From Candidatus Babelota bacterium (GTDB lineage: Bacteria > Babelota > Babeliae > Babelales > Vermiphilaceae), in assembly GCA_049325595.1 (NCBI GenBank), contig JBMOLF010000009.1, forward strand, positions 1 through 64,000: 64,000 nt of DNA, read 5' to 3'. Within the stretch, counting starts at the first letter, position 1. Every line of letters begins with the position of its first letter. A program made the translations under genes and the position numbers. This document shows positions 45,253 through 57,845 of this stretch, piece after piece. A model generated the notes under the pieces. That model worked only from the letters and a program-made list of their open reading frames with translations. It had not been told where the DNA came from and did no database searches.

Positions 45253-45606
45253 ATGAAAAATGGATTAGGTCGTATCCCGAAAAGTTTAACAATGCTCAAC
45301 CAAAAAAAAGATAAACAAGAAAAAAATAATGCACAGTATCAAGAGAAAATTGAGCAAGAGCCTAAAATAGTTCCATTAGCTCAGATATATCAAGAAAAAG
45401 CAAAAAAAACTACGCAAAAAGGGCTTCCTGCTGGTTGGACAAGAGCGACATTTATCATAGAAGAAAAAATGAATGATAAAATTAGAGCACTAGCTTATTG
45501 GGAACGGCTGACTGTTAAAGAAATTGTATATGAAGCGTTAAGAGATTATCTCAAAGGCAAACAAATTAAACCTATCCCCGAAAAAAGAATAATTATTAAG
45601 CAGTAA
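45253..45606 (+). CDS. Small ribbon-helix-helix DNA-binding protein (putative type Ib ParB-like adaptor)
   Basis: Charged flexible N-terminus then TRATFII (ribbon), EKMNDKIRALAYW (helix), TVKEIVYEALRDYL (helix); directly downstream of parA. Confidence 0.72.
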   Translation: MKNGLGRIPKSLTMLNQKKDKQEKNNAQYQEKIEQEPKIVPLAQIYQEKAKKTTQKGLPAGWTRATFIIEEKMNDKIRALAYWERLTVKEIVYEALRDYLKGKQIKPIPEKRIIIKQ

Positions 45607-45761
45607 TAAACTAATTATTGGGGAGATTGTTCAAAAAAAGATTCAATTTATTTCAATAAAAGAATTTATGCCTCAATTTGTTTAATTAATAGTATTTGCG
45701 ATCTGACATTTGATATTCTAATTGTAAATATAGTTGTTTTTAAACTATTGAGGTTTTTCTT

Positions 45762-46151
45762 ATGCAGGTAAAATATACTTTTTTATTTATTATTGCTTTT
45801 GTTCCACTACTTTCTCACGCGTATGTTTTCAGAGTTAGTAATGAAACCAATCATCGTATTAATGTAACTCTTAATGAAATTGGGCGATGGCGTAACAGAA
45901 CTCATCAAGTAGATCCGCGTAGTACTATTCAAATAAACACCGGCATTTTTTGTGTAAATAGAATCGATGCGCTGGTTCCATCTTTTGATTTTATAAATCG
46001 TTTGCAATATCAACTGGAACTTCGTGGAAATGCCTGCAGAAATAGAAATTTTGTAATAAGAAGCCGCACGGTTATGCGCAAAAGCATTGTACATCATATT
46101 GTTCCACAACCGCCTCATCCCGCTGAAGAAATATACATAGAAGAGGTGTAA
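45762..46151 (+). CDS. Small secreted beta-rich protein, 'YxxRVxNxT' family
   Basis: Signal ending SHA; YVFRVSNET, NTGIFCVNRI, GNACR. Confidence 0.82.
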   Translation: MQVKYTFLFIIAFVPLLSHAYVFRVSNETNHRINVTLNEIGRWRNRTHQVDPRSTIQINTGIFCVNRIDALVPSFDFINRLQYQLELRGNACRNRNFVIRSRTVMRKSIVHHIVPQPPHPAEEIYIEEV

Positions 46152-46230
46152 GATTAAAAAATTATTTAATATTGTTTATTTGTAAATATTGTCGCTGTTA
46201 TACTAAAAGTAAAAAGGGGAGAGAGTACAT

Positions 46231-46602
46231 ATGAAATATAAATTATTAGCGCTATTTCTAATTACGGGCGTTTATAACATAAATGCTTATATAATGAGAG
46301 TTCACAATACGACCGATGGTATTGTTTCGGTTGCCATACGAACAACAGCTGGGCCAACTTACACACAAGATATTGATGCGCATGGATTTTGGCAAGTTGA
46401 TACCATTGGCTGGTGTCCAAGAGAAATTTCGGTTTCAGGAGTAACTGGCCCTAACGTTGGCTTATCTAATACCAACTCTAATATTACCGGTAATCGTTGC
46501 CGGAGCAGAACTATTCACATTGTTCCGCGTTTACCGTTAGCCCGAAATTTACAAACTAATATTGTGCAATATCAAGGACTTGATATTCTTCTTTCTAATT
46601 AA
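46231..46602 (+). CDS. Small secreted beta-rich protein, 'YxxRVxNxT' family
   Basis: Signal ending INA; YIMRVHNTT, DTIGWCPREI, GNRCR. Confidence 0.82.
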   Translation: MKYKLLALFLITGVYNINAYIMRVHNTTDGIVSVAIRTTAGPTYTQDIDAHGFWQVDTIGWCPREISVSGVTGPNVGLSNTNSNITGNRCRSRTIHIVPRLPLARNLQTNIVQYQGLDILLSN

Positions 46603-46613
46603 AGGATATAGTC

Positions 46614-47000
46614 ATGAAAATAAAATTATTGATCATCGCATTATGTGTTACCTCAATAGCACATGCATACAGATACCGTGTAAATAATAATACTCAAGGA
46701 CAAGTTTACGTTGAATTAAATGCTATTGGTAGGTGGTCAAACCCTCACAATGTTATCGAGCCGGGTCAAAGTTGGGAAATTAATACACGCGGCTACTGTG
46801 TAAACAGAGTTACTGCTATTGGCCGTAGTGGCGTGGTCGAAGGGTTACATACAACTCATGAAGTGCGTGGTATAGCATGCCAAGGTCGTACATTTAATAT
46901 ACGTGCATTAGGTGAAATACGCGATGTACTAGAACGAGTTGATGAAAGCGGCAGACCATTATATGTGCCACAAGCATTGAGAATCGAAGATTCTAATTAA
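46614..47000 (+). CDS. Small secreted beta-rich protein, 'YxxRVxNxT' family
   Basis: Signal ending AHA; YRYRVNNNT, NTRGYCVNRV, GIACQ. Confidence 0.82.
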   Translation: MKIKLLIIALCVTSIAHAYRYRVNNNTQGQVYVELNAIGRWSNPHNVIEPGQSWEINTRGYCVNRVTAIGRSGVVEGLHTTHEVRGIACQGRTFNIRALGEIRDVLERVDESGRPLYVPQALRIEDSN

Positions 47001-47272: not shown

Positions 47273-48526
47273 ATGAAAATTACTAAAATAATCGGCCGTG
47301 AAATTTATGACTCCCGTGGTATGCCAACGCTTGAATGTGAGTTGTTTTTAGAAGAAGGATATTCAGTTACCTCATCGGTTCCATCAGGAACCTCTAAAGG
47401 ACAATTTGAAGCAAAAGAACTGCGTGATGCAAAGCGTCTTGGTGGTCATGGTGTTGCAGTAGCTATTGAAAACTTAGAAAATATCATTGCACCTGCGCTA
47501 ATTGGACAAGAGCCAGAAGCTATCACCATGGATCTGCACATGATTGAGCTTGATGGCACTATCGATAAATCAAAACTTGGTGCCAATACTATTTTAGCGG
47601 CAAGCATGTGCATTTTTCGGGCACAGTCTCTAATTGCTGGCGTGGAGCCATATGAATTAGCAGGCCATTTATGTGACTTTAATTCAGTAAGTTTACCATT
47701 TCCTATGTTTAATGTATTAAATGGCGGCGTGCATGCGGATAATGGTTTAATGATACAAGAAATAATGGTTATCCCCGTTGGTGCGCAAAGTTTTAGAGAT
47801 TCGATGGAAGGCGGCTTTGTTGTAAACCAAGAATTAAAACAAGTGCTTAAAGAAAAAAAACGTTCAACCTTAGTTGGTGATGAAGGTGGCTTTGCGCCAG
47901 TTTGTACCGATGAAGAAGAAGCGCTTGATATTATGATGCTTGCCATTGAACGTGCACAGCAAAAAACAGGCTTACGCTATGTATTAGCACTTGATGTTGC
48001 AGCAAGCCAATTTTATGATTATGAAAAACAAACCTATCGCTGGCATGAGCAAACAAAAACAACGCAAGAACTAGTCGATTGGTATGAAAAACTGGCACAT
48101 GCATATCCGCTTTATTCGATTGAAGACGGCCTTGCAGATACCGATTTTGATGGATGGAAAGAGCTTACCAGCCGTCTAGGTGAAAAAATTCTAATTATTG
48201 GTGATGATTTATTTGCTACTAATCAACATCGCATTGTACAAGGTATTGAGCAAGGTCTTGCGACCGGTGTAATCATTAAACCAAATCAAGTTGGTACAGT
48301 TACTGAGACATTGCAAGCAATTAAATTATGCAAAGCGTATGATCTACAAGCTATTGTATCTCATCGATCCGGTGAAACGAATGACACGTTTATCGTTGAT
48401 TTAGTAGTAGGGTGTAGTGTTCCCTATATTAAAGCAGGTGGTTTTTCACGAGGAGAGCGCATGGCTAAATACAATCAGCTCATGCGCATCGAAGACTTTT
48501 TGATGTTCTCGCTGCTAGGTTCGTGA
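47273..48526 (+). CDS. eno: Enolase
   Basis: REIYDSRG, VPSG, NGGVHA, GDEGG, IEDG, GDDLF, IKPNQ, SHRSGET, ERMAKYNQL; ATG 47273 with GGGGAG RBS. Confidence 0.96.
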   Translation: MKITKIIGREIYDSRGMPTLECELFLEEGYSVTSSVPSGTSKGQFEAKELRDAKRLGGHGVAVAIENLENIIAPALIGQEPEAITMDLHMIELDGTIDKSKLGANTILAASMCIFRAQSLIAGVEPYELAGHLCDFNSVSLPFPMFNVLNGGVHADNGLMIQEIMVIPVGAQSFRDSMEGGFVVNQELKQVLKEKKRSTLVGDEGGFAPVCTDEEEALDIMMLAIERAQQKTGLRYVLALDVAASQFYDYEKQTYRWHEQTKTTQELVDWYEKLAHAYPLYSIEDGLADTDFDGWKELTSRLGEKILIIGDDLFATNQHRIVQGIEQGLATGVIIKPNQVGTVTETLQAIKLCKAYDLQAIVSHRSGETNDTFIVDLVVGCSVPYIKAGGFSRGERMAKYNQLMRIEDFLMFSLLGS

Positions 48527-50878
48527 AAAAGGATTTTCTTCAATTTGATTAACAAGATCTTTTAGCTGTTTATCTTTGTTGTCATCTAATTGAGCAGGCG
48601 ATTGTTGAGAAGCAATATGAAAGCTTTCTTCTATGCCTGCTTCATCTAAAAGATCTTTTTCATACGCATCGGCTGCTATTTCAGGGTCAGTTGCCAAGTA
48701 TTGATCGACCAATGCCTGCGATGGTTCCCTCGTTGGTTGGAAGAACCAGCGCGTAATCGGATCACGAAGATTGTCAAAGATATAGTTTTCATTGCTGTAG
48801 TTTTGAGCAATTTCAACATAATCTTTGGTCATTTCACTAATGCCAGCACGCAAACGTGGCTTAATAATAGTTGGCGAAATAAATACCGTTAAAAAGGTCT
48901 TAGTTGCAGCACTGCTTCTGCGTTTAAAGAACCAACCCAAAATAGGAATTTGGCCGAGTAATGGTGTTTCATTTAAGGCATCCAGCATATCAATTCGGGT
49001 AAGTCCGCCCAATGCAAGTACGCACCCATTTGCAACATTAGCATTGGTTATTACTTTACGGGCAAGGCGGTTTCCATCAGATACATTAGCAGACGTAAAT
49101 TGTACGATGTCCACTTCTATGTGAAGGTTTACCGTATTTGCTGAACTTATACGTGGGGTAATACCAACAGTTAATTGTGCTGGAATCCATTTACGTGTTG
49201 CATTTATAGCACCACCAGAAGAACCTGCAGCCGCGTCTTGTAAAAAGCGATCTTCAGTTACCGTGATCATTGCTTGCTTGTTATTAATTGCAATTACGTG
49301 TGGGTGACTTAAAACCTTGGTATTATCAAGCAATTTTTGAATTTGCAAGATTCCCCAGGTTTGTCCGCTATTAGGATCATTAAATGCAACTGCCATTGAT
49401 CCCGGACTAAAAAAACTTGCCGCACTGCGATTATCCCCGCCCGGCGTTGTGGGAGGATAGGCATTACGCAATAGATCAGATTGAAGGGTATTTGCCGGAG
49501 GCACCGTATTTTCATTAAGTAAAATATTTGGTGTTGTTTGCGCTGATTGGAAATTCACTAAATGCGGGAATGGTAATTGTGCTGGGTTCCGAATCGAGCT
49601 ACCAAGTAATCGAACATCATTTAAGGTTAAATCAGCAATTAAAACTTGCAGCATTACAATGTCTTGCGGGCGATCAACTTGCTCAATAAATTTTTTGATA
49701 TATTCCCAATCATCAGAACGTGCTGCAATAATTAAGTTATTATTACCAGCAAATTTACCCTCTGCCGCTTCTTTATTACCAAGATTGAGTGTTTTATCGC
49801 TTTTTACAATAACACTTTGTAAAAGGCGTTCAGGACCACCTTCTGTCGCTTCGCCACCTCGTGCTTGCTCAGGTCCGCCACCGCGCTGGCCTTTAATAAT
49901 TGACTCAAGAACAGGAACAAATGAATCAGCATCTAGGTATTGTAATTGATACACATGCAAAATTGATTTACCCGTACCGATCTCTACATCGATATATTTC
50001 ATTATAAAATCTTTGAGTCGCTCAACTGCTTGTGCGCGCCCCCTTAAGATAATTGAATTGGTGCGAGGTACGGCTGCAACGGCAACAGGTTGAAAATAAG
50101 TACCTTCTGGTTTTTTACTGCCGGGTAGCTTGTTTGGCTCAACGGTTACTTGTAACTCTTTGAGAATTTGATCAACAACAAATGAGGCTTGTACAAAATG
50201 TAAACGCAATACTTCTAGTGTTTCTTTGTAGGTTGTTTGATCGAGTGCATTTAAAATTTGAATTGCTGCGCGAATATTACTTCCTCTATCGGTTATTAAA
50301 AAACTATTAGTAGCAACATCAACTTTAATATCTGCTTTGAATAAGGCGCTATCAGATAAAACATTTTTTAATATAGCAAGCAATTCGCTATCGGCTGCAT
50401 CAGATGCGCGAATGTTTGATAAATAGTGTAAGTATCGAACTGGTTGATCAGTATCGGGGGGCAATACACCAACATACAGTGGCAATGATTCACGAATAAG
50501 ATCAGGTGTAGTTTTTATAATTTGATAATTTCCTGCGTGAGGAACAATGTTGTACCCAGCGATATTAAGAAGTGTTTGAAAAATGTCCCATGCTTCAGAC
50601 AACGTTAATTTTTCTTCAATATGTAAGGTTACTTTTTGATTAATAGGTTCTTTTGGCAAGACGACATTAATTCTTTTTTCAGCACTCATTAAGTTGATGA
50701 TATCAACCAGATCTTCATTATCAAAATAAAAGCTAATTTTTCTTTTGCGATTTTTCTTTTGTTTACCATTAGGCTTTGCAGAAATTTTTTCATTCAATGC
50801 GCTTGGATGAAAAATGCTTTTTATATCTTCTGCCCATACTGTATTGCTTAAGAGAATTATGATAAATAAAAAAATCAT
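48515..50878 (-). CDS. gspD: Type II secretion secretin GspD (paralogue 2)
   Basis: Signal; N0 (FYFDNEDL), N-domain repeats (PRTNSIIL, NNNLII), secretin domain (SHPHV, ITPRIS, ALGGL, PLLGQIPILGWFFK). Confidence 0.9.
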   Translation of the reverse strand: MIFLFIIILLSNTVWAEDIKSIFHPSALNEKISAKPNGKQKKNRKRKISFYFDNEDLVDIINLMSAEKRINVVLPKEPINQKVTLHIEEKLTLSEAWDIFQTLLNIAGYNIVPHAGNYQIIKTTPDLIRESLPLYVGVLPPDTDQPVRYLHYLSNIRASDAADSELLAILKNVLSDSALFKADIKVDVATNSFLITDRGSNIRAAIQILNALDQTTYKETLEVLRLHFVQASFVVDQILKELQVTVEPNKLPGSKKPEGTYFQPVAVAAVPRTNSIILRGRAQAVERLKDFIMKYIDVEIGTGKSILHVYQLQYLDADSFVPVLESIIKGQRGGGPEQARGGEATEGGPERLLQSVIVKSDKTLNLGNKEAAEGKFAGNNNLIIAARSDDWEYIKKFIEQVDRPQDIVMLQVLIADLTLNDVRLLGSSIRNPAQLPFPHLVNFQSAQTTPNILLNENTVPPANTLQSDLLRNAYPPTTPGGDNRSAASFFSPGSMAVAFNDPNSGQTWGILQIQKLLDNTKVLSHPHVIAINNKQAMITVTEDRFLQDAAAGSSGGAINATRKWIPAQLTVGITPRISSANTVNLHIEVDIVQFTSANVSDGNRLARKVITNANVANGCVLALGGLTRIDMLDALNETPLLGQIPILGWFFKRRSSAATKTFLTVFISPTIIKPRLRAGISEMTKDYVEIAQNYSNENYIFDNLRDPITRWFFQPTREPSQALVDQYLATDPEIAADAYEKDLLDEAGIEESFHIASQQSPAQLDDNKDKQLKDLVNQIEENPFSRT

Positions 50879-51438
50879 GTTGCCTCACGAGCCAATGGTG
50901 GTAATAATGTGGCAATAGTTAAGGTTGAATTAATTGTTTGTGGATTTTTTTCTGAGCGGGTAATTTCTAGGTCTTTTATGTAAAGCCTATTGGTTTGTTC
51001 GATTGTTGATAAAAATTGTGCAAGTTGTTTCATGTTAATACCGGCTAAGGTTACTTTCTCAGCTTGCTCACGATAATTATCTTCAACAACAGTAGTAGTA
51101 AATTCTCCAGAGGTAAAATTTTGTTCTAAGTTTAGCTGTTTGGTAATATCTCGAATAAAACCATCTATTTTAAACTCAGGGTCTTGCGCTAAAATTGCAT
51201 CAACTGCTTTACGTTGTTGCTGCACTTTTTGTGCTTTTTGTAAAATTTCACGCGTTTGCTCGCGCGCTTCATTAATAATATTAATGTGTCTGGTAGCTGA
51301 TGCTATGCCCCAAAAATAATTTATTACTAACAATAGAGCGATAAGAAAAATAATACCCCAATACACAACAATGTATCTGATAAATGATCGTTCATTTAAG
51401 TTTTGAATGAATTCTTGTATTTTTTTTATAAGGGTCAT
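50875..51438 (-). CDS. gspM: GspM/PilO-like inner-membrane platform protein
   Basis: LNER before a single TM, coiled coil, then VTLAGINMKQLAQFLSTIEQ..LYIKDLEI; position in operon. Confidence 0.75.
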   Translation of the reverse strand: MTLIKKIQEFIQNLNERSFIRYIVVYWGIIFLIALLLVINYFWGIASATRHINIINEAREQTREILQKAQKVQQQRKAVDAILAQDPEFKIDGFIRDITKQLNLEQNFTSGEFTTTVVEDNYREQAEKVTLAGINMKQLAQFLSTIEQTNRLYIKDLEITRSEKNPQTINSTLTIATLLPPLAREAT

Positions 51439-53063
51439 GATTTCTCCTGACCGTTTTTAAGCAATCGAATAACAATAGTAAACTGTGGCTCTTTGCCTTC
51501 TTCTATGAGTTTAAATAATTTCGATTTTTTTAAATCGCGTTCGAGATTTTTTAATGCCTCATAATCGTTTACTTTGCCTTGCAGAGTAAGAATACCATCT
51601 GCAGAAAAAGTAATTTTTTCAAGATCTAGACCTAGAGCTTCTTTATCAATTTTATCAGTTAGCTCCAAAAGATATTTTAAATATGAAGTCCGAGCAGTGG
51701 TTAAAACAGCAAATCGTCTTTCTTCATCATTAACTGCGCGCTCTGCTTCAGCGATTAAGTCATCAAGGTCGGTTACTTCTTCTGGGATTTTAGGGAAACG
51801 CTCTTTAAGCGTTTCAATCACTTCTTCTTGAGAGGTATACGCTTCATTATGCAAGCGACGCAATCCAGCAAGACTAAAAATTAATAATGAGCCAATGATT
51901 AAGAGTGATAAAACAAGGCTTACTAATAATTGTTTGGAAAGCTCCCAGGTCGAGGCGGTTGCAAATTCTTCTTTGCGCACATTAAAACGTGCCATACTGG
52001 TATTGGGCAATGCTACTGCTAGACTGACCACATTGTCATCGGGGAAATTATTTTTTGCTGATATTGAAATTCCTGTTTGGGAAATTGCCTGATGGAGGTT
52101 AAAAACATTAGTAGCAACCTGCAAGTGTTCAGAAAAATAACCAAGCATACCCTTTAAATGTGCTGTTTGACCAAAAAACAACAACGAATCCATCGATTCA
52201 TGCTCAAGCGCTGTAAATGATTTAATAGTAAAATCTATATCTTTTGCAAGAGTTGCAAAGCCAGAATCAATTGCTTGGGCATAAGTATCGGTATGAGCAT
52301 GCTTTTCTAGGCCGTAGCGTAAGGTATAATCCAGTGCTTCGGCTATAGAAATATGTAATTGCTCACTTGCTAATTTGGCGACATCATAAATTCCTTTGGG
52401 CAGTGTTCGCATTGCTCGTAACTGGCCGCGTTGAATATAGGCCATTCGGGTTCCTTGAATGCCAATTTCAATCAAGGTTACATTTTCATTAAGTGATCGA
52501 TAATAAGGTAGTGCGGTATACAAACCATAAAGGGCAAGCAAATCGATGGTAATTTTTTGAGGACTAATTCCTGCTGCTTCAAATAATGCCAGATGATGAG
52601 CAATATGTTGCTTTTGTACAGCGACAATAAGTACTTCAACACTTTTTTCGTCAGGTAATTGTTTGGTAATAACAAAATCGACGACCGCATCTTGAATAGG
52701 AAAGGGCAGTAATGGCTCAATTTCATTTTGAACAACTCGCGCAATCATATCATAATCAGTAAAGGGAAATTTTAGTTCTTTAAAGATTGTTTGTGCGCTA
52801 CTCATAGAGCTATAAACCGCTTGATAACGAGCATCAATCGAATCGATAATTTTTTTTATTGCAGAGCTAATTCGACTATCGTTATCATTACCATCGGTGA
52901 CATCTAATTGTTCTTGAAACCATTTTTCAATTATTATGTTACGACCTTTTGCTAATATTTGGGTAGCGGTAACATGGGTCTTGCCGATATCAAATCCAAT
53001 AATGCGCGTTGGAATTACATAGTAATTGCGAATTTCCTGCGGGATAAATAGATCTTTAATCAT
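51435..53063 (-). CDS. gspL: GspL-like protein (PilM-like actin-fold domain + TM + PilN-like domain)
   Basis: IGFDIG, ELKFPF, EIEPLLPFP..VVDF, AAGI, IEIG; TM near residue 385; LTLQG..YEAL..L..S.LF. Confidence 0.82.
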   Translation of the reverse strand: MIKDLFIPQEIRNYYVIPTRIIGFDIGKTHVTATQILAKGRNIIIEKWFQEQLDVTDGNDNDSRISSAIKKIIDSIDARYQAVYSSMSSAQTIFKELKFPFTDYDMIARVVQNEIEPLLPFPIQDAVVDFVITKQLPDEKSVEVLIVAVQKQHIAHHLALFEAAGISPQKITIDLLALYGLYTALPYYRSLNENVTLIEIGIQGTRMAYIQRGQLRAMRTLPKGIYDVAKLASEQLHISIAEALDYTLRYGLEKHAHTDTYAQAIDSGFATLAKDIDFTIKSFTALEHESMDSLLFFGQTAHLKGMLGYFSEHLQVATNVFNLHQAISQTGISISAKNNFPDDNVVSLAVALPNTSMARFNVRKEEFATASTWELSKQLLVSLVLSLLIIGSLLIFSLAGLRRLHNEAYTSQEEVIETLKERFPKIPEEVTDLDDLIAEAERAVNDEERRFAVLTTARTSYLKYLLELTDKIDKEALGLDLEKITFSADGILTLQGKVNDYEALKNLERDLKKSKLFKLIEEGKEPQFTIVIRLLKNGQEKS

Positions 53064-55633
53064 GTATTAATCCCTTTGGTTTGTTCATCATTAAAGAGTT
53101 CCACTAATGATTTTTTAGTCGTTGATTGCGCTAATGATCGTGTTCTTGGCATGCTAGCAGCAGGAGTTATACTTTTTGGTTGCTCAATGGTTGCATGAGC
53201 TAAATCGATCGGTCTTTGGGATCCTATTGGAGGCAAAGGTGGCTCGGGATTTACCGGACAATTATTATTCTTACGTTGGAAAATGAAATCGTCAGCCGCG
53301 CGTTCAGTTCCTTCACGACTTGGTTGGAAGAATAATAGATCAACTGGGTCGCGCTTTTGTGAAACATCACGCATGTCATCAGTGGTTAACTCGTACGCAT
53401 TAATATGTTTTTGAGTAAATTGTTTTATCGAACTTTGATCAAACGGCTCAATAATGGTTGTTGATATTAAGATCAGAAGATCTTGTTTTCGTTCTGCCTG
53501 GCGCTTATTTTTAAATAACCAACCAAGTACCGGAATATCGCCTAAAATTGGCACTTTAGAAACGTTATTGGTAACCGTGTTTTGAATCAAACCACCAAGT
53601 GCAATAACTTCTCTATTTGCAGAAATGGTAGTTGTGTTAATTTTTCGGGTAATACGTGCGGCATTCACCGGATCAGCTGCAGTGATAAAGTTTGAGAGCT
53701 CAATACCAAGGTCAAGTACAATCATGCCATCGGAGTTAATCTGAGGGGTAACATTAATTTCGAGCTTAGCAGTTTCATCACCAAACGTATTTGCTGTAGC
53801 ATTACTAATAATTTGGCTGGTAATCAAACGACGAATTTCACCAAGTGTTACGGTTGCTTTAGTTTTATTAGTTGCAACAACAAAAGGGTTTGAAACTACT
53901 TGTGTATTGCTCACGGTTTGCAACAACTGCAATATTGCCCATACGTTAAGATTATCCCCAAGAGAAATAACGGTATTACCAGCAGGTGCAAAGTTCACCA
54001 GACTTAATAAATTTCCTAACAAACGATTGGCTCCAGGTCCGAACGTGTTTTCTACGATACCTTTGGCGGCACCACCAGCGCGTAAGCCTGATGTTTGAAA
54101 GTCAACATTGTATCCTGTTAATCCTTCAACTCCAGGAACACGCGTTCTTATTTGTGCACCGAGCTCTTTTGTGTTTACTAAATCAACAAGTAAAATGAGT
54201 ACTTCTACGGCAACCTGACGTTGTGGAGCGTCAAGCATTGCAATAATGTCTTTTACTTTCAAAAAGTCTTCATAATCAGCGCGAACAACTAATTGGTTTC
54301 CTTCTGGTTCATGTACAAATGTCATAGGTTTGAAAAATTTGTCGCCATCACGAACAGCGCCAAATGCAGCTTGCGGCCCTGTTTGCCCCAGAGTTGTAAC
54401 ACTATTCATAATGTTAGCGATAGTGCGCGCATCAGCATAGCGCATTTTAATGACATGAATGGGAGAATATGGTTGGGTTAACTCGACGTCAATAAATCGA
54501 GTAATAAAATCTTCAATTTTTTTAATACCTTCTGCAGAGCCTAAAATAATTAATGAATTAGTGCGCGGTTCTGCAAAAATTTTGGTTCCTTCAGGAAAAT
54601 ACTGACCGGTTGGTGTTCTGCGCCCAGGGAATAATCGAGCCGTTACACTTTGACGATCTTCTTCAGGATTAAGTTGCTTATAAAGTTTTGCAACATCCAT
54701 GGCATCTGCGCGACGAAGTTTTAATACCGACATTGCTTGTGGAGCATTAGCTTTATCTAATTCTTTGATGATCTGCATTAAGCTTTTAATATTATAAGCT
54801 TTATCAGTTATCACGAGTGCTCTTAGTTCTTGTAAAATCACTACAGCAGATGATGGACTACGTAATCCCGGCTTGTTTTCGTCACCAATTAATGATCGAA
54901 GCGTATCAGTTGAAATATTGTCATAAAAATATACAAAGCGAACCATTTCATCGCTGTCTGGCAATGTTTCAGCAGGTACACCAATAAAGGCCGGAAGCGG
55001 CATTCGCCGTGCATTTTCAACCGCCGTAATGCGCATAACACGCGGTGTTGGCTCCGGAACAATTGCAAGGCCTGCAATAGACAAAAAGGTATTAAAAAGA
55101 TTCCACGCAGCTTTTCGCGTTAAAGGCTTTTCTGTTTTAAAAGAAATTTTATTTCCTTTAATTGGACGTGACAATGCTCCTTGTGCGCCAGGAGTTACCG
55201 TATCATCTGTAATAAAGGTAACGCCGTAAATATCTTCTATTTGTTTTACCAGTTGTTCAAGGTCGGCATTTTCAAAATAAAATTCAATAAGTTCTTCTTG
55301 CTCAGGCAATTGAATTTGAGGTTCTTCTATGGGTAATTCTTTTTGGTCTAATAATTTGTGTGCTTGTTCGGTAGGGCTTTCTTTATAGCCTTTATCGACT
55401 AATGGCGGTTGCTCTGGTACCGGAGCAGTAGGTGCAAAAACAGGATTTTCAGCTTTTACTTCAGGTATTGCTGGTTCACTTGATAATACCGGTTTTGCAT
55501 GCTCAACAGGCTTTGCTTTTTTTGTGCACAATTCTTCTTGCTGTGGTATACAATTTTGTTTTTTAGCGCATGATGGAGTAATGCCAATGAGTGTGAGTAA
55601 GAGCCACGCTAAAGGAATACGATATAAATTCAT
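53060..55633 (-). CDS. gspD: Type II secretion secretin GspD (paralogue 1)
   Basis: N0 (FYFENADL), EPRTNSLII, LDAPQRQVAVEV, SNPFV, VTPQIN, ALGGLI, KVPILGDIPVLGWLFK; Pro-rich N-terminal extension. Confidence 0.93.
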   Translation of the reverse strand: MNLYRIPLAWLLLTLIGITPSCAKKQNCIPQQEELCTKKAKPVEHAKPVLSSEPAIPEVKAENPVFAPTAPVPEQPPLVDKGYKESPTEQAHKLLDQKELPIEEPQIQLPEQEELIEFYFENADLEQLVKQIEDIYGVTFITDDTVTPGAQGALSRPIKGNKISFKTEKPLTRKAAWNLFNTFLSIAGLAIVPEPTPRVMRITAVENARRMPLPAFIGVPAETLPDSDEMVRFVYFYDNISTDTLRSLIGDENKPGLRSPSSAVVILQELRALVITDKAYNIKSLMQIIKELDKANAPQAMSVLKLRRADAMDVAKLYKQLNPEEDRQSVTARLFPGRRTPTGQYFPEGTKIFAEPRTNSLIILGSAEGIKKIEDFITRFIDVELTQPYSPIHVIKMRYADARTIANIMNSVTTLGQTGPQAAFGAVRDGDKFFKPMTFVHEPEGNQLVVRADYEDFLKVKDIIAMLDAPQRQVAVEVLILLVDLVNTKELGAQIRTRVPGVEGLTGYNVDFQTSGLRAGGAAKGIVENTFGPGANRLLGNLLSLVNFAPAGNTVISLGDNLNVWAILQLLQTVSNTQVVSNPFVVATNKTKATVTLGEIRRLITSQIISNATANTFGDETAKLEINVTPQINSDGMIVLDLGIELSNFITAADPVNAARITRKINTTTISANREVIALGGLIQNTVTNNVSKVPILGDIPVLGWLFKNKRQAERKQDLLILISTTIIEPFDQSSIKQFTQKHINAYELTTDDMRDVSQKRDPVDLLFFQPSREGTERAADDFIFQRKNNNCPVNPEPPLPPIGSQRPIDLAHATIEQPKSITPAASMPRTRSLAQSTTKKSLVELFNDEQTKGINT

Positions 55634-55638
55634 ATTTT

Positions 55639-56745
55639 TTACTCGGTGTTAGATAACATATTTTGTATTGGCCGCTTCCCTTTTTCCAACATATTTTTTC
55701 TTTCTCTGGCCCTCAATTCATCAATTGTTGGTGCAAATGTTTCACGTTCTTCAAGTCGTTTTAATTGCTCTCTTGTTATTTGATCTGCCGTTCTTCTTTG
55801 GGTGTCTCGTGCTGGCGGCTTGGCAATAGTATCACGCAATTCGTAGTAAATGGTGGTTTCTCTGCCATTTCTTATTACTTTAACTGGAATTGTTCGATTT
55901 GTCTTTAATGTAGTAAGTTCTTGGTAAATAGTAAAACGATTTGCCGTAGTTGTTGCCGGAATATCGTTAATAGCAATCACCATATCGCCACGCTCTAAGC
56001 CTATTGCAGCAGCAAGTGACGGAGGGTTTATCGTGCCAATACGACAGCCAATGCTAGCCCCTTGACTATACACACCAGTTAAATCAAGCATATCGATAAA
56101 TTGTGCAAGGCTATGAACTCTGCCAGCAAATTCATGTACATTTACCATAAATTTATTTGATGAAATAGGTTTGATAACAGATGACCAATCTTCAATAAAC
56201 GTATAAGCAGGATCTGATTTTGCATCACGTTCTTTAAGGTACAATACTTCTTGCTGGCCATTAGAACGTAAGAATATAACTTTATTACTCATAATCCGAA
56301 TAAGTTGTGCATCTTCAATACGATCACCAATTTGATAACTGGATTCTTGTCCAGTTGCATTGTCGGCAATAATCGCTCTGTTTCTTGTGTCATCATGAAC
56401 AATCACAATTATGCCACGCAACGTTATAGCCAGTGGCTCTTGAAATTGCGGCTTGGGCTCTTCTGGTTTGTAGATAGGATGCGGCGCGGGTGGCTCGGGT
56501 GCAACTGCCGTGAATGTTGGCACGCGCTCAATAGGCGCTTCAGGAATTACTGTATTGAATAAATCATTTTGGTATATTTTACTCAAATTAATTTGCGCAG
56601 ATGTTGTAGTAATTGGCTTTACATACTCGACAGGTACAATTTCTTCTCGCTCGGGAATAGATATAGACGAAAAGAGCATAAATCCGAGTACAGAGATAAA
56701 AAGGAAAAGGAGTGCGCTGTTTAAAAGCCAAAATGGTTGTCTCAT
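55639..56745 (-). CDS. gspC: Type II secretion protein GspC (TM, HR domain, PDZ)
   Basis: N-terminal TM, LRGII..RAII..Y.IGD.I.DA.L..I..NKV HR domain, GLERGDMVIAIND PDZ. Confidence 0.88.
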   Translation of the reverse strand: MRQPFWLLNSALLFLFISVLGFMLFSSISIPEREEIVPVEYVKPITTTSAQINLSKIYQNDLFNTVIPEAPIERVPTFTAVAPEPPAPHPIYKPEEPKPQFQEPLAITLRGIIVIVHDDTRNRAIIADNATGQESSYQIGDRIEDAQLIRIMSNKVIFLRSNGQQEVLYLKERDAKSDPAYTFIEDWSSVIKPISSNKFMVNVHEFAGRVHSLAQFIDMLDLTGVYSQGASIGCRIGTINPPSLAAAIGLERGDMVIAINDIPATTTANRFTIYQELTTLKTNRTIPVKVIRNGRETTIYYELRDTIAKPPARDTQRRTADQITREQLKRLEERETFAPTIDELRARERKNMLEKGKRPIQNMLSNTE

Positions 56746-56852
56746 TCATTCATTCCTTGTGATAAGTACCTTTCACACAATACCCCTCATATTTGCATTT
56801 TGTCAAGTTCCATAATTGTGTGAAAATGACTTACCGTTGCGGCCTTTGCGTA

Positions 56853-57845
56853 TCACGGTGACGGTATTGTTTGCAAGATTTTATTGATAACCATGTCGGG
56901 GCTGAGTCCATCCGCTTCAGCTTGGTATGTTAATACTAAGCGATGGCGCAAAGCGGGAAGAGCTACTGCTTTTATATCATCAGGCGTAACAAAATGACGT
57001 TTTCTTAAAAACGCATATGCTTTTGCTGATTGATATAATGTTATGGTGGCTCGCGGTGAAACCCCCGATTGAATATAAGATTTTAAATTGGTCAATCCAT
57101 AACTTTCAGGTGCTCGTGTCGCAAAAATAATATTTACCAAATATTCAATTATCTTGTCATCAACATAAACAGCTTCTACTAATTTTTGAGCAAGTAGAAT
57201 ATCTGCTTCAGTTAAAATTTGTATTAGGTCGTTAGTATTGCGAGAGCGCAGAAGAAGTTCTTTTTCTTCATGCTTATTAGGATAGTTTACCAATAGTTTA
57301 AACATAAAGCGGTCTACTTGAGCTTCAGGCAACTGATAGGTTCCTTCTTGCTCAATAGGATTTTGTGTTGCAAAAACTAAAAATGGTTCTTGCAGCTTAA
57401 ATGTTTGAGATCCGATAGTTACTTGTTTTTCTTGCATTGCTTCAAGTAAAGCTGCCTGCACTTTTGCCGGCGCACGATTTATTTCATCGGCAAGAATAAG
57501 ATTTGCAAAAATAGGGCCTTTTTTGGTCTCGAACTCTTGTGTTTTAGGATTGTATATTAACGTTCCGATAACATCTGATGGTAATAAATCTGGTGTAAAT
57601 TGTATGCGATTAAATTTAAGCCCCAACGCTTTGGTGAGCGCTTTAATCATAGTTGTTTTTGCAACCCCTGGCACTCCTTCAAGAAGAATGTGCCCATCAC
57701 ATAAAATAGCGATCATCATAAATTGTATAATGTCCTGATGACCAATAATAACTTTGCCTACTTCGTGACTAAGCCCTTGAAATTGAGCAGTTGTATCTTT
57801 TATTTGTTCAATGATAGAACTATCTGGCAGTGCTGTTTCTATCAT
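56853..57845 (-). CDS. MoxR family AAA+ ATPase
   Basis: LLEGVPGVAKT, RIQFTPDLLPSD, LADEINRAPAKVQAALLEAMQE, ATQNPIEQEGTY.LPEAQ.DRF. Confidence 0.96.
   Translation of the reverse strand: MIETALPDSSIIEQIKDTTAQFQGLSHEVGKVIIGHQDIIQFMMIAILCDGHILLEGVPGVAKTTMIKALTKALGLKFNRIQFTPDLLPSDVIGTLIYNPKTQEFETKKGPIFANLILADEINRAPAKVQAALLEAMQEKQVTIGSQTFKLQEPFLVFATQNPIEQEGTYQLPEAQVDRFMFKLLVNYPNKHEEKELLLRSRNTNDLIQILTEADILLAQKLVEAVYVDDKIIEYLVNIIFATRAPESYGLTNLKSYIQSGVSPRATITLYQSAKAYAFLRKRHFVTPDDIKAVALPALRHRLVLTYQAEADGLSPDMVINKILQTIPSP

Follow-up and report, generated by a model that had tools for sequence, protein, structure and literature searches.

A type II secretion operon with two secretin genes

We analysed a 64,000-nucleotide stretch of DNA (hereafter the window, contig C9 of its assembly) from a member of the Dependentiae (TM6, Babeliales), and we describe here an operon of the type II secretion system (T2SS) that encodes two different secretins, D1 and D2. 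The source genome measures 1.29 Mb in 24 contigs and is 95% complete; its nearest public relative is 'Candidatus Dependentiae bacterium Noda2021'. Five co-directional open reading frames (ORFs) on the minus strand span positions 48515-56745, in the order gspC, gspD1, gspL, gspM and gspD2:

55639-56745, minus strand: gspC, 368 amino acids (aa); T2SS inner-membrane/periplasmic protein with homology region (HR) and PDZ domain
53060-55633, minus strand: gspD1, 857 aa; GspD-type secretin (PF21305, PF03958, PF00263)
51435-53063, minus strand: gspL, 542 aa; PilM/actin-like cytoplasmic domain and GspL-type periplasmic half
50875-51438, minus strand: gspM, 187 aa; PF04612 T2SSM
48515-50878, minus strand: gspD2, 787 aa; GspD-type secretin (PF21305, PF03958, PF00263)

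The gspC and gspD1 genes are separated by a 5-bp gap (TAA-aaaat-ATG), and the three junctions that follow (D1/L, L/M and M/D2) are all ATGA overlaps. ORF coordinates and junction sequences thus agree with a first-pass annotation of this DNA, which had described a five-gene operon with one gap and three overlaps. In Pfam, GspC matches PF11356 T2SSC (30.5 bits, cut-off 27) together with weak PDZ matches; its NCBIfam matches, NF041515 GspC_delta at 85.5 bits and TIGR01713 at 68.2 bits, are both under cut-off. GspL has a clearly PilM-like N-terminal half (PF11104 PilM_2 in Pfam, 85.7 bits), and its residues 353-515 match the NCBIfam model TIGR01709 GspL at 34 bits. GspM scores 30.4 bits on the Pfam family PF04612 T2SSM against a cut-off of 27.8.

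The annotation had also called both secretins full length with GspD-type N-domains, and Pfam and NCBIfam bear this out. Firstly, both proteins carry the secretin domain PF00263 (107.5 bits in D1 and 106.1 bits in D2, cut-off 27.5), the GspD-type N0 domain PF21305 (34.7 and 29.5 bits, cut-off 27) and Secretin_N, PF03958 (76.7 bits in two stretches of D1, 72.5 bits in three stretches of D2). Secondly, the top NCBIfam model for both is TIGR02517 GspD, with 272.2 bits for D1 and 248.6 bits for D2, against 152.5 and 106.4 bits on PilQ TIGR02515, 102.8 and 70.1 bits on SctC, and 85 and 68 bits on MshL. Thirdly, a sequence search of the PDB returned T2SS GspD/PulD 15-mers as the nearest solved relatives (5zdh, 6hcg, 5wq7-9), and a Foldseek search with the D2 model placed PulD first (6hcg, 2.8e-29, compared with 2e-18 for InvG of the type III secretion system, T3SS). 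In all of these comparisons (Pfam, NCBIfam, PDB sequence search and fold search) T2SS GspD ranked first for both copies. The AlphaFold2 (AF2) models show the succession N0-N1-N2-N3-barrel-S in D1 and in D2, with four alpha/beta N-domains each and with helices of low confidence after the last barrel strand; the alignment of D2 to V. cholerae GspD extends through the S domain (chain residue 634 of 650).

The two proteins differ at their N termini. D2 has a plain signal peptide, whereas D1 begins with a signal peptide that ends in a lipobox-like sequence, read by eye (residues 15-22, ...LIGITPSC), and that leads into a disordered linker of about 95 aa (residues 18-112 in the AF2 model); D1 also has a disordered tail.

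55568-55633, minus strand: D1 signal peptide with lipobox-like end ...ITPSC (Cys22), read from the sequence

A lipid anchor on D1 is thus possible, if putative. Beyond the window, the lipobox-like pattern [LI][PSA][GSA]C occurs in only 5 of the 43 other D1 orthologues (L013, L015, L016, L018 and L025), and we therefore rejected it as a general feature of D1.

The operon is conserved across Dependentiae

We compared the locus with 50 related loci, from Dependentiae/Babeliales or from metagenome-assembled genomes. The gene order MoxR-C-D1-L-M-D2, followed by a convergent enolase gene downstream, recurs throughout these loci; in 47 of them the gene immediately before gspC is MoxR, and two of the remaining three are cut short. 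The state of the five genes was as follows:

37 of 50 loci: all five genes intact single ORFs, in order
5 of 50 loci: contig end before or inside D2
6 of 50 loci: at least one gene fragmented (several genes in four loci; D2 alone in L049), which fits indel-rich assemblies
1 of 50 loci (AP025250.1): D1 alone split, by a single 1-nt deletion
1 of 50 loci (L055): D2 missing after gspM

The last case had suggested the absence of one copy, an explanation that we rejected: in the L055 genome D2 is found on another contig, where it adjoins enolase. The pairing of D2 with enolase is kept across the phylum, and the two moved as a unit in this genome where D2 left the operon.

The pair is equally widespread at the level of whole genomes. 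At least two secretin-domain matches were found in 149 of 151 sampled Dependentiae genomes (two in 103, three in 45 and four in 1), with a single match in one genome and none in another, these figures being profile matches, not curated copy numbers, from genomes that are related and hence not independent.

Phylogeny indicates an ancient duplication

We placed D1 and D2 among other secretins in trees whose rows comprised the D1 and D2 orthologues, four third secretins of Dependentiae (described below), outgroup secretins of many phyla and a set of named references: GspD, HofQ and EtpD of E. coli, GspD of Providencia, Neorhizobium and Nitratiruptor, PilQ of N. gonorrhoeae, MshL of Legionella and pIV of phage IKe. 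In the FastTree phylogeny (123 rows) D1 and D2 are sister clades with a support of 94, and phage pIV groups with the proteobacterial GspD references, away from both. In the IQ-TREE phylogeny (60 rows, mixture model, pIV and MshL excluded as long branches) D1, D2 and five other TM6 rows form one clade, with 100 in the Shimodaira-Hasegawa-like approximate likelihood ratio test (SH-aLRT); the five extra rows hold the D1 or the D2 position of the same operon. This clade falls among the GspD-type secretins, and both trees keep D1 and D2 separate from PilQ/HofQ (support 98-99). T3SS secretins stood outside the trees and were compared by hidden Markov model (HMM) score and fold search only, and they rank behind GspD in both. 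Clustering with PilQ, T3SS or phage secretins, which the first-pass annotation had named among the outcomes that would speak against its reading, was found neither in the trees (for PilQ and pIV) nor in HMM scores and fold search (for T3SS). A single clade restricted to Dependentiae, with an SH-aLRT of 100, indicates that the pair stems from an ancient duplication specific to this lineage, which the trees would place in its stem.

Both copies share a C-terminal motif, which the annotation had quoted and which is present in each as quoted:

53312-53353, minus strand: D1 tail motif RDPVDLLFFQPSRE (aa 761-774), S-domain region
48725-48766, minus strand: D2 tail motif RDPITRWFFQPTRE (aa 705-718)

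The motif lies in the S-domain region of both proteins, and the AF2 model of D1 has a short helix within it (763-769). Its general form, DP[IV]xxx[FY]F, is found in 41 of 44 D1 rows, 39 of 41 D2 rows and 7 of 8 other Dependentiae rows, and in none of the 9 references, the 4 third secretins and the 65 non-Dependentiae outgroups. Since it is present in D1 and D2 and absent from the outgroups, the motif is, by its distribution over these rows, older than the duplication and a mark of the D1/D2 clade of Dependentiae.

Both copies are retained and mostly intact

We estimated the ratio of non-synonymous to synonymous substitution rates (dN/dS) from two locus pairs with unsaturated dS (0.27-0.56). 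The ratios were 0.087 and 0.132 for D1 and 0.080 and 0.087 for D2, and C, L and M gave comparable values. Mean identity within each set of orthologues is even over N0, N1, N2, N3 and the barrel (0.53-0.58 for D1, 0.41-0.55 for D2), and the identity between D1 and D2 is 0.25-0.31 in every domain (about 28%). An independent metagenome contig of 139 kb spans the whole operon with 287 differences, and its indels all preserve the frame: D1 has an insertion of 3 nt, and D2 has two pairs of indels that compensate for each other. Judged from these substitution patterns, both copies are under purifying selection.

It is hence most unlikely that either copy is decaying or without function: besides the dN/dS of 0.08-0.13 for both copies and the frame-preserving indels of the independent strain, both genes are intact in 37 of the 50 loci across the phylum. 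The only sign of decay among close relatives, a point that the annotation had raised, is the D1 gene of AP025250.1, the complete genome of the closest relative, in which a 1-nt deletion (L011:11220-11390, equivalent to about 54250-54420 of the window) splits the gene into ORFs of 440 and 417 aa. The two pieces are still 78-86% identical to D1 of the window, so this lesion may be very recent, or an assembly error. The suggestion of an old duplication with both copies retained thus holds, given the single Dependentiae clade, the intact loci and the low dN/dS, and D1 and D2 are very probably both functional GspD paralogues.

The pair probably belongs with a single core T2SS

The annotation had seen none of the genes for GspE, GspF, pseudopilins or a prepilin peptidase in the window. 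They are absent from the operon and from its immediate neighbours; genome-wide profile searches located all of them on other contigs, so that the T2SS genes are spread over four contigs (C9, C10, C7 and C1). GspE (571 aa) scores 654.7 bits on TIGR02533 (cut-off 630.25), GspF 352.6 bits (under the cut-off of 424), GspG 96.3 bits (cut-off 88.85) and the prepilin peptidase 61 bits on Peptidase_A24. The pseudopilin cluster has the order gspF-gspG-gspH-gspI-(J)-gspK, with GspH-, GspI- and GspK-like proteins together. The genome as a whole therefore holds the parts of a complete T2SS (GspD, E, F, G, peptidase, C/L/M and minor pseudopilins), including the ATPase and the pseudopilins whose absence from the genome would, according to the annotation, have spoken against its reading. 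D1 and D2 are the sole secretins of this genome, and gspC, gspL and gspM are each single. GspL is its only strong PilM_2 match and GspM its only T2SSM match; genome searches found no second PilM/GspL or GspM, and no separate PilN or PilO.

A second, partial type IV filament set is present in the same genome, made up of a split GspE/PilB-type ATPase, a HofC/PilC-like platform protein and a PilA-like pilin. The second ATPase consists of two adjoining genes, for a 196-aa protein of the MshEN-type N-domain and a 390-aa core:

contig C1:88582-90348 (= L064:5583-7349), minus strand: split second ATPase, two adjacent genes

An assignment of the 391-aa ATPase, the core of this split enzyme, to PilT was rejected, the protein scoring 481.7 bits on GspE and 166.5 bits on the PilT family. 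Short second-ATPase frames (about 394-424 aa) were seen in at least five other Dependentiae genomes, and since the same short form recurs there the split looks conserved and not like a fresh pseudogene.

This second set bears on a proposal already in print. According to the available passages of Yeoh et al. 2016 (PMC4776705), all TM6 genomes studied (seven) have two gspD copies and lack pilQ, and one gspD copy may substitute for pilQ, which the authors called 'an open question'; the idea is echoed by Deeg et al. (PMC6561590, likewise in the passages available). One copy would then replace the missing PilQ as the conduit of a type IV or competence pilus, and the other would secrete protein. The window's genome offers some ground for this, with its second ATPase (196 + 390 aa), PilC/HofC-like platform, PilA-like pilin and prepilin peptidase, and without any PilQ-type secretin.

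To set against it, we counted secretin, T2SSE ATPase (E <= 1e-40) and platform matches over the same 151 genomes. In 31 of these, there are two secretin matches, a single ATPase match and no more than one platform match. The 31 genomes belong to families f4, f5, f9, f16 and part of f8, and most measure 0.8-1.2 Mb. Five of them were searched for GspG and showed only the pseudopilins of the GspG cluster, that is, GspG and a neighbouring pseudopilin beside gspF; in contrast, the PilA-like pilin of the window's genome does match the GspG model. The D1 and D2 pair, as far as profile matches tell, is kept where only one T2SS can exist. Because both secretins persist where there is a single ATPase and no more than one platform protein, we assign them to the single core T2SS.

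A further argument comes from a third secretin, which was matched in 46 genomes (with a fourth in one); of these 46 genomes, 44 have two or more ATPase matches. We examined four of these third secretins:

L073:9650-11341, minus strand
L075:9849-11531, minus strand
L076:9052-10413, plus strand
L074:8741-10378, plus strand

They are 453-563 aa long, end right after the barrel, have no S tail and group with PilQ/HofQ at 98-99 support (98 in IQ-TREE). Two or three small ORFs come before each of them, and one of these ORFs gives a weak PilO match (E 0.0017). D1 and D2 are still kept in all four genomes. Family f1, to which the window belongs, lacks both the third secretin and its small ORFs and has the second ATPase and platform. 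In family f10 the third secretin adjoins a long GspE-type ATPase. The statement that pilQ is absent in TM6, as it stands in the available part of PMC4776705, is contradicted by the PilQ-type secretins of these other families.

Both D1 and D2, moreover, keep a GspD-type N0 domain and adjoin gspC/L/M. Taking these observations together, both copies probably serve the core T2SS and do not stand in for PilQ, a substitution that we consider rather unlikely. The phyletic pattern likewise weighs against the split between export and DNA uptake that the annotation had offered as an example. Its broader proposal was a hetero-oligomeric secretin or two channels sharing one C/L/M platform; the part common to both, one system with two secretins, is supported by this pattern, and the choice between them is taken up next.

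Two channels on one platform or a mixed ring

We infer the protein contacts, oligomer composition and cargo of the D1/D2 system as follows. The window holds the outer-membrane and assembly-platform half of a single T2SS, in which D1 and D2 would be two channels on one platform; for this reading as a whole we see the chances as evenly balanced. Each copy would form its own homo-oligomeric outer-membrane channel, both channels would dock via their conserved N0 domains on one GspC/GspL/GspM-GspE-GspF platform, and the result would be two exits differing in properties or cargo. That D1 and D2 form two separate channels is, as a claim of its own, a little short of an even chance. Between two channels on one platform and a mixed ring we slightly favour the two channels, because the paralogues are only about 28% identical, because each conserves its own N0 and because one genome has kept D2 despite its separation from the operon.

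Several observations weigh against this reading, among them the D1 lesion of AP025250.1 and the nature of the genome counts, both given above. Neither D1 nor D2 reaches the TIGR02517 equivalog cut-off of 351.35 bits. The second filament set of the window's genome comes without a dedicated secretin, and a pilus could, in this family, also run through one of the two channels. Finally, in a covariation analysis of the distance matrices of six proteins, which is exploratory and uses non-independent pairs, D1-D2 gave the highest correlation (r 0.86) and the only positive residual (+0.26). This is a weak hint that may just as well fit co-assembly into one ring; paralogues also share fold and location.

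Under co-assembly, D1 and D2 would combine in one hetero-oligomeric, mixed or layered, secretin complex, and in some lineages the targeting or assembly of D2 may be aided by a D1 with a lipid anchor. The translational coupling of the two genes within one operon, their near-constant co-retention (149 of 151 genomes), the clade-specific S-domain motif held by both copies and the exploratory D1-D2 correlation would all agree with this, as would the long disordered linker and lipobox-like Cys of D1 beside the plain signal peptide of D2. However, the two proteins are just 25-31% identical in each domain, so that lateral interfaces compatible between them would not by default be expected, the lipobox is restricted to the window and 5 of the 43 other D1 orthologues, and D2 is retained in the one genome where it is unlinked from the operon. 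In addition, the solved T2SS secretins are homo-15-mers, and an odd-numbered ring cannot alternate two subunits. We regard co-assembly as possible but doubtful, and we give the same tentative standing to an obligate two-secretin machine, whether as one mixed or layered complex or as one platform alternating between two dedicated channels.

Alternatively, the two channels might be used at different times or places, by the free infectious and by the intracellular replicating cell of the life cycle; in a more exotic variant, one copy would act beyond the bacterial outer membrane. In favour of this, no dedicated secretion system other than the T2SS is reported for Dependentiae in Pagnier et al. 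(PMC4378268), and many ankyrin proteins with signal peptides are exported, according to PMC6561590. Against this, translational coupling through the ATGA overlaps argues against independent regulation, and we find stage-specific use quite unlikely.

Comparison with described systems

The classical T2SS (Gsp/Pul/Eps/Xcp) has the same parts list: C (with HR and PDZ), D, E, F, G-K, L, M and a peptidase. It has one GspD, whereas the Dependentiae operon has two paralogous secretins. The present system further differs in that its T2SS genes are scattered over four contigs in the window's genome, its GspL has a clearly PilM-like N-terminal domain, its S-domain motif is clade-specific, and all components except GspE and GspG fall under their NCBIfam equivalog cut-offs. 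PilQ and HofQ have the secretin barrel in common with D1 and D2, but the pair does not group with them; PilQ sits with pilMNOP, and the neighbours of D1 and D2 are gspC/L/M, so that membership in the PilQ type is not borne out.

More than one GspD-type secretin in a bacterium is not without precedent. Pseudomonas aeruginosa has several, XcpQ, the liposecretin HxcQ and XqhA; HxcQ carries an N-terminal lipid anchor and a linker, resembling the lipobox-plus-linker start of D1 in the window. These secretins belong to separate loci or systems, or are orphan spares, and are not known to form a conserved paralogue pair within one operon that shares a single C/L/M set. Textbook models of the T2SS assume one homo-oligomeric secretin per machine.

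The annotation had regarded the trait as new. As a matter of gene content it has been known since 2015/16, two gspD copies being reported in the passages available of PMC4776705. Those passages are without the operon order, phylogeny and phyletic pattern given here, and our analysis adds that D1 and D2 persist without a second ATPase or platform. Our search of the Dependentiae and secretin literature found no report of a conserved operon order, a single-origin phylogeny, a clade-specific tail motif or a PilQ-type third secretin, and no phyletic argument against the PilQ-substitute idea, and the one paper that it gave on gspD in Dependentiae was that of Yeoh et al.; in the literature on two secretins in type II secretion, judged by titles and abstracts, there was none on two in one operon. 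What is gained is a set of sharper constraints on a published trait: the PilQ-substitute idea is weakened, and a PilQ-type third secretin exists in other families.

The phylum Dependentiae is widespread, and its members live as obligate parasites of protists. They have kept the secretin pair since the phylum arose, and genomes of 0.8 Mb that have just one ATPase keep it too; this implies that the two copies either divide the work or assemble together, neither of which current T2SS models cover. A mixed complex or an alternating platform, if true, would have no described counterpart among secretin-based systems, and the two-secretin machine, if true, would be the only export route for large effector sets to protist hosts. 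The question can now be tested in cultured strains.

Surroundings of the operon

Upstream of gspC, across a 107-bp spacer, lies a MoxR-type ATPase gene on the same strand:

56853-57845, minus strand: MoxR-type AAA+ ATPase (PF07726 AAA_3, 221.6 bits), upstream neighbour of gspC
56777-56806, minus strand: promoter-like TTGACA-18-TATTGT in the MoxR-gspC spacer; a weak 10/12 match, by consensus likeness only

Scans of the region gave no excess of promoter-like sites (31, against 34.5 expected from shuffles) or of terminator-like sites (5, against 8.8 expected). The MoxR-type ATPase has no von Willebrand factor A (VWA) partner nearby; a role in the assembly of the secretion complex is conceivable. 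On the other side, the 3' ends of gspD2 (minus strand) and enolase (plus strand) overlap convergently by 12 bp (48515-48526). Farther along, positions 45253-47000 of the plus strand carry four successive small ORFs (117, 129, 123 and 128 aa) with no Pfam match, flanked by a ParA/MinD-like ATPase gene and enolase.

Elsewhere in the genome, a gene for a 324-aa protein (contig C1:144170-145144, plus strand; = L065:4171-5145) lies between the genes for the prepilin peptidase and the PilA-like pilin. It has a weak F-box-like match (E 0.00045, under cut-off), and its product is a possible eukaryote-like effector candidate.

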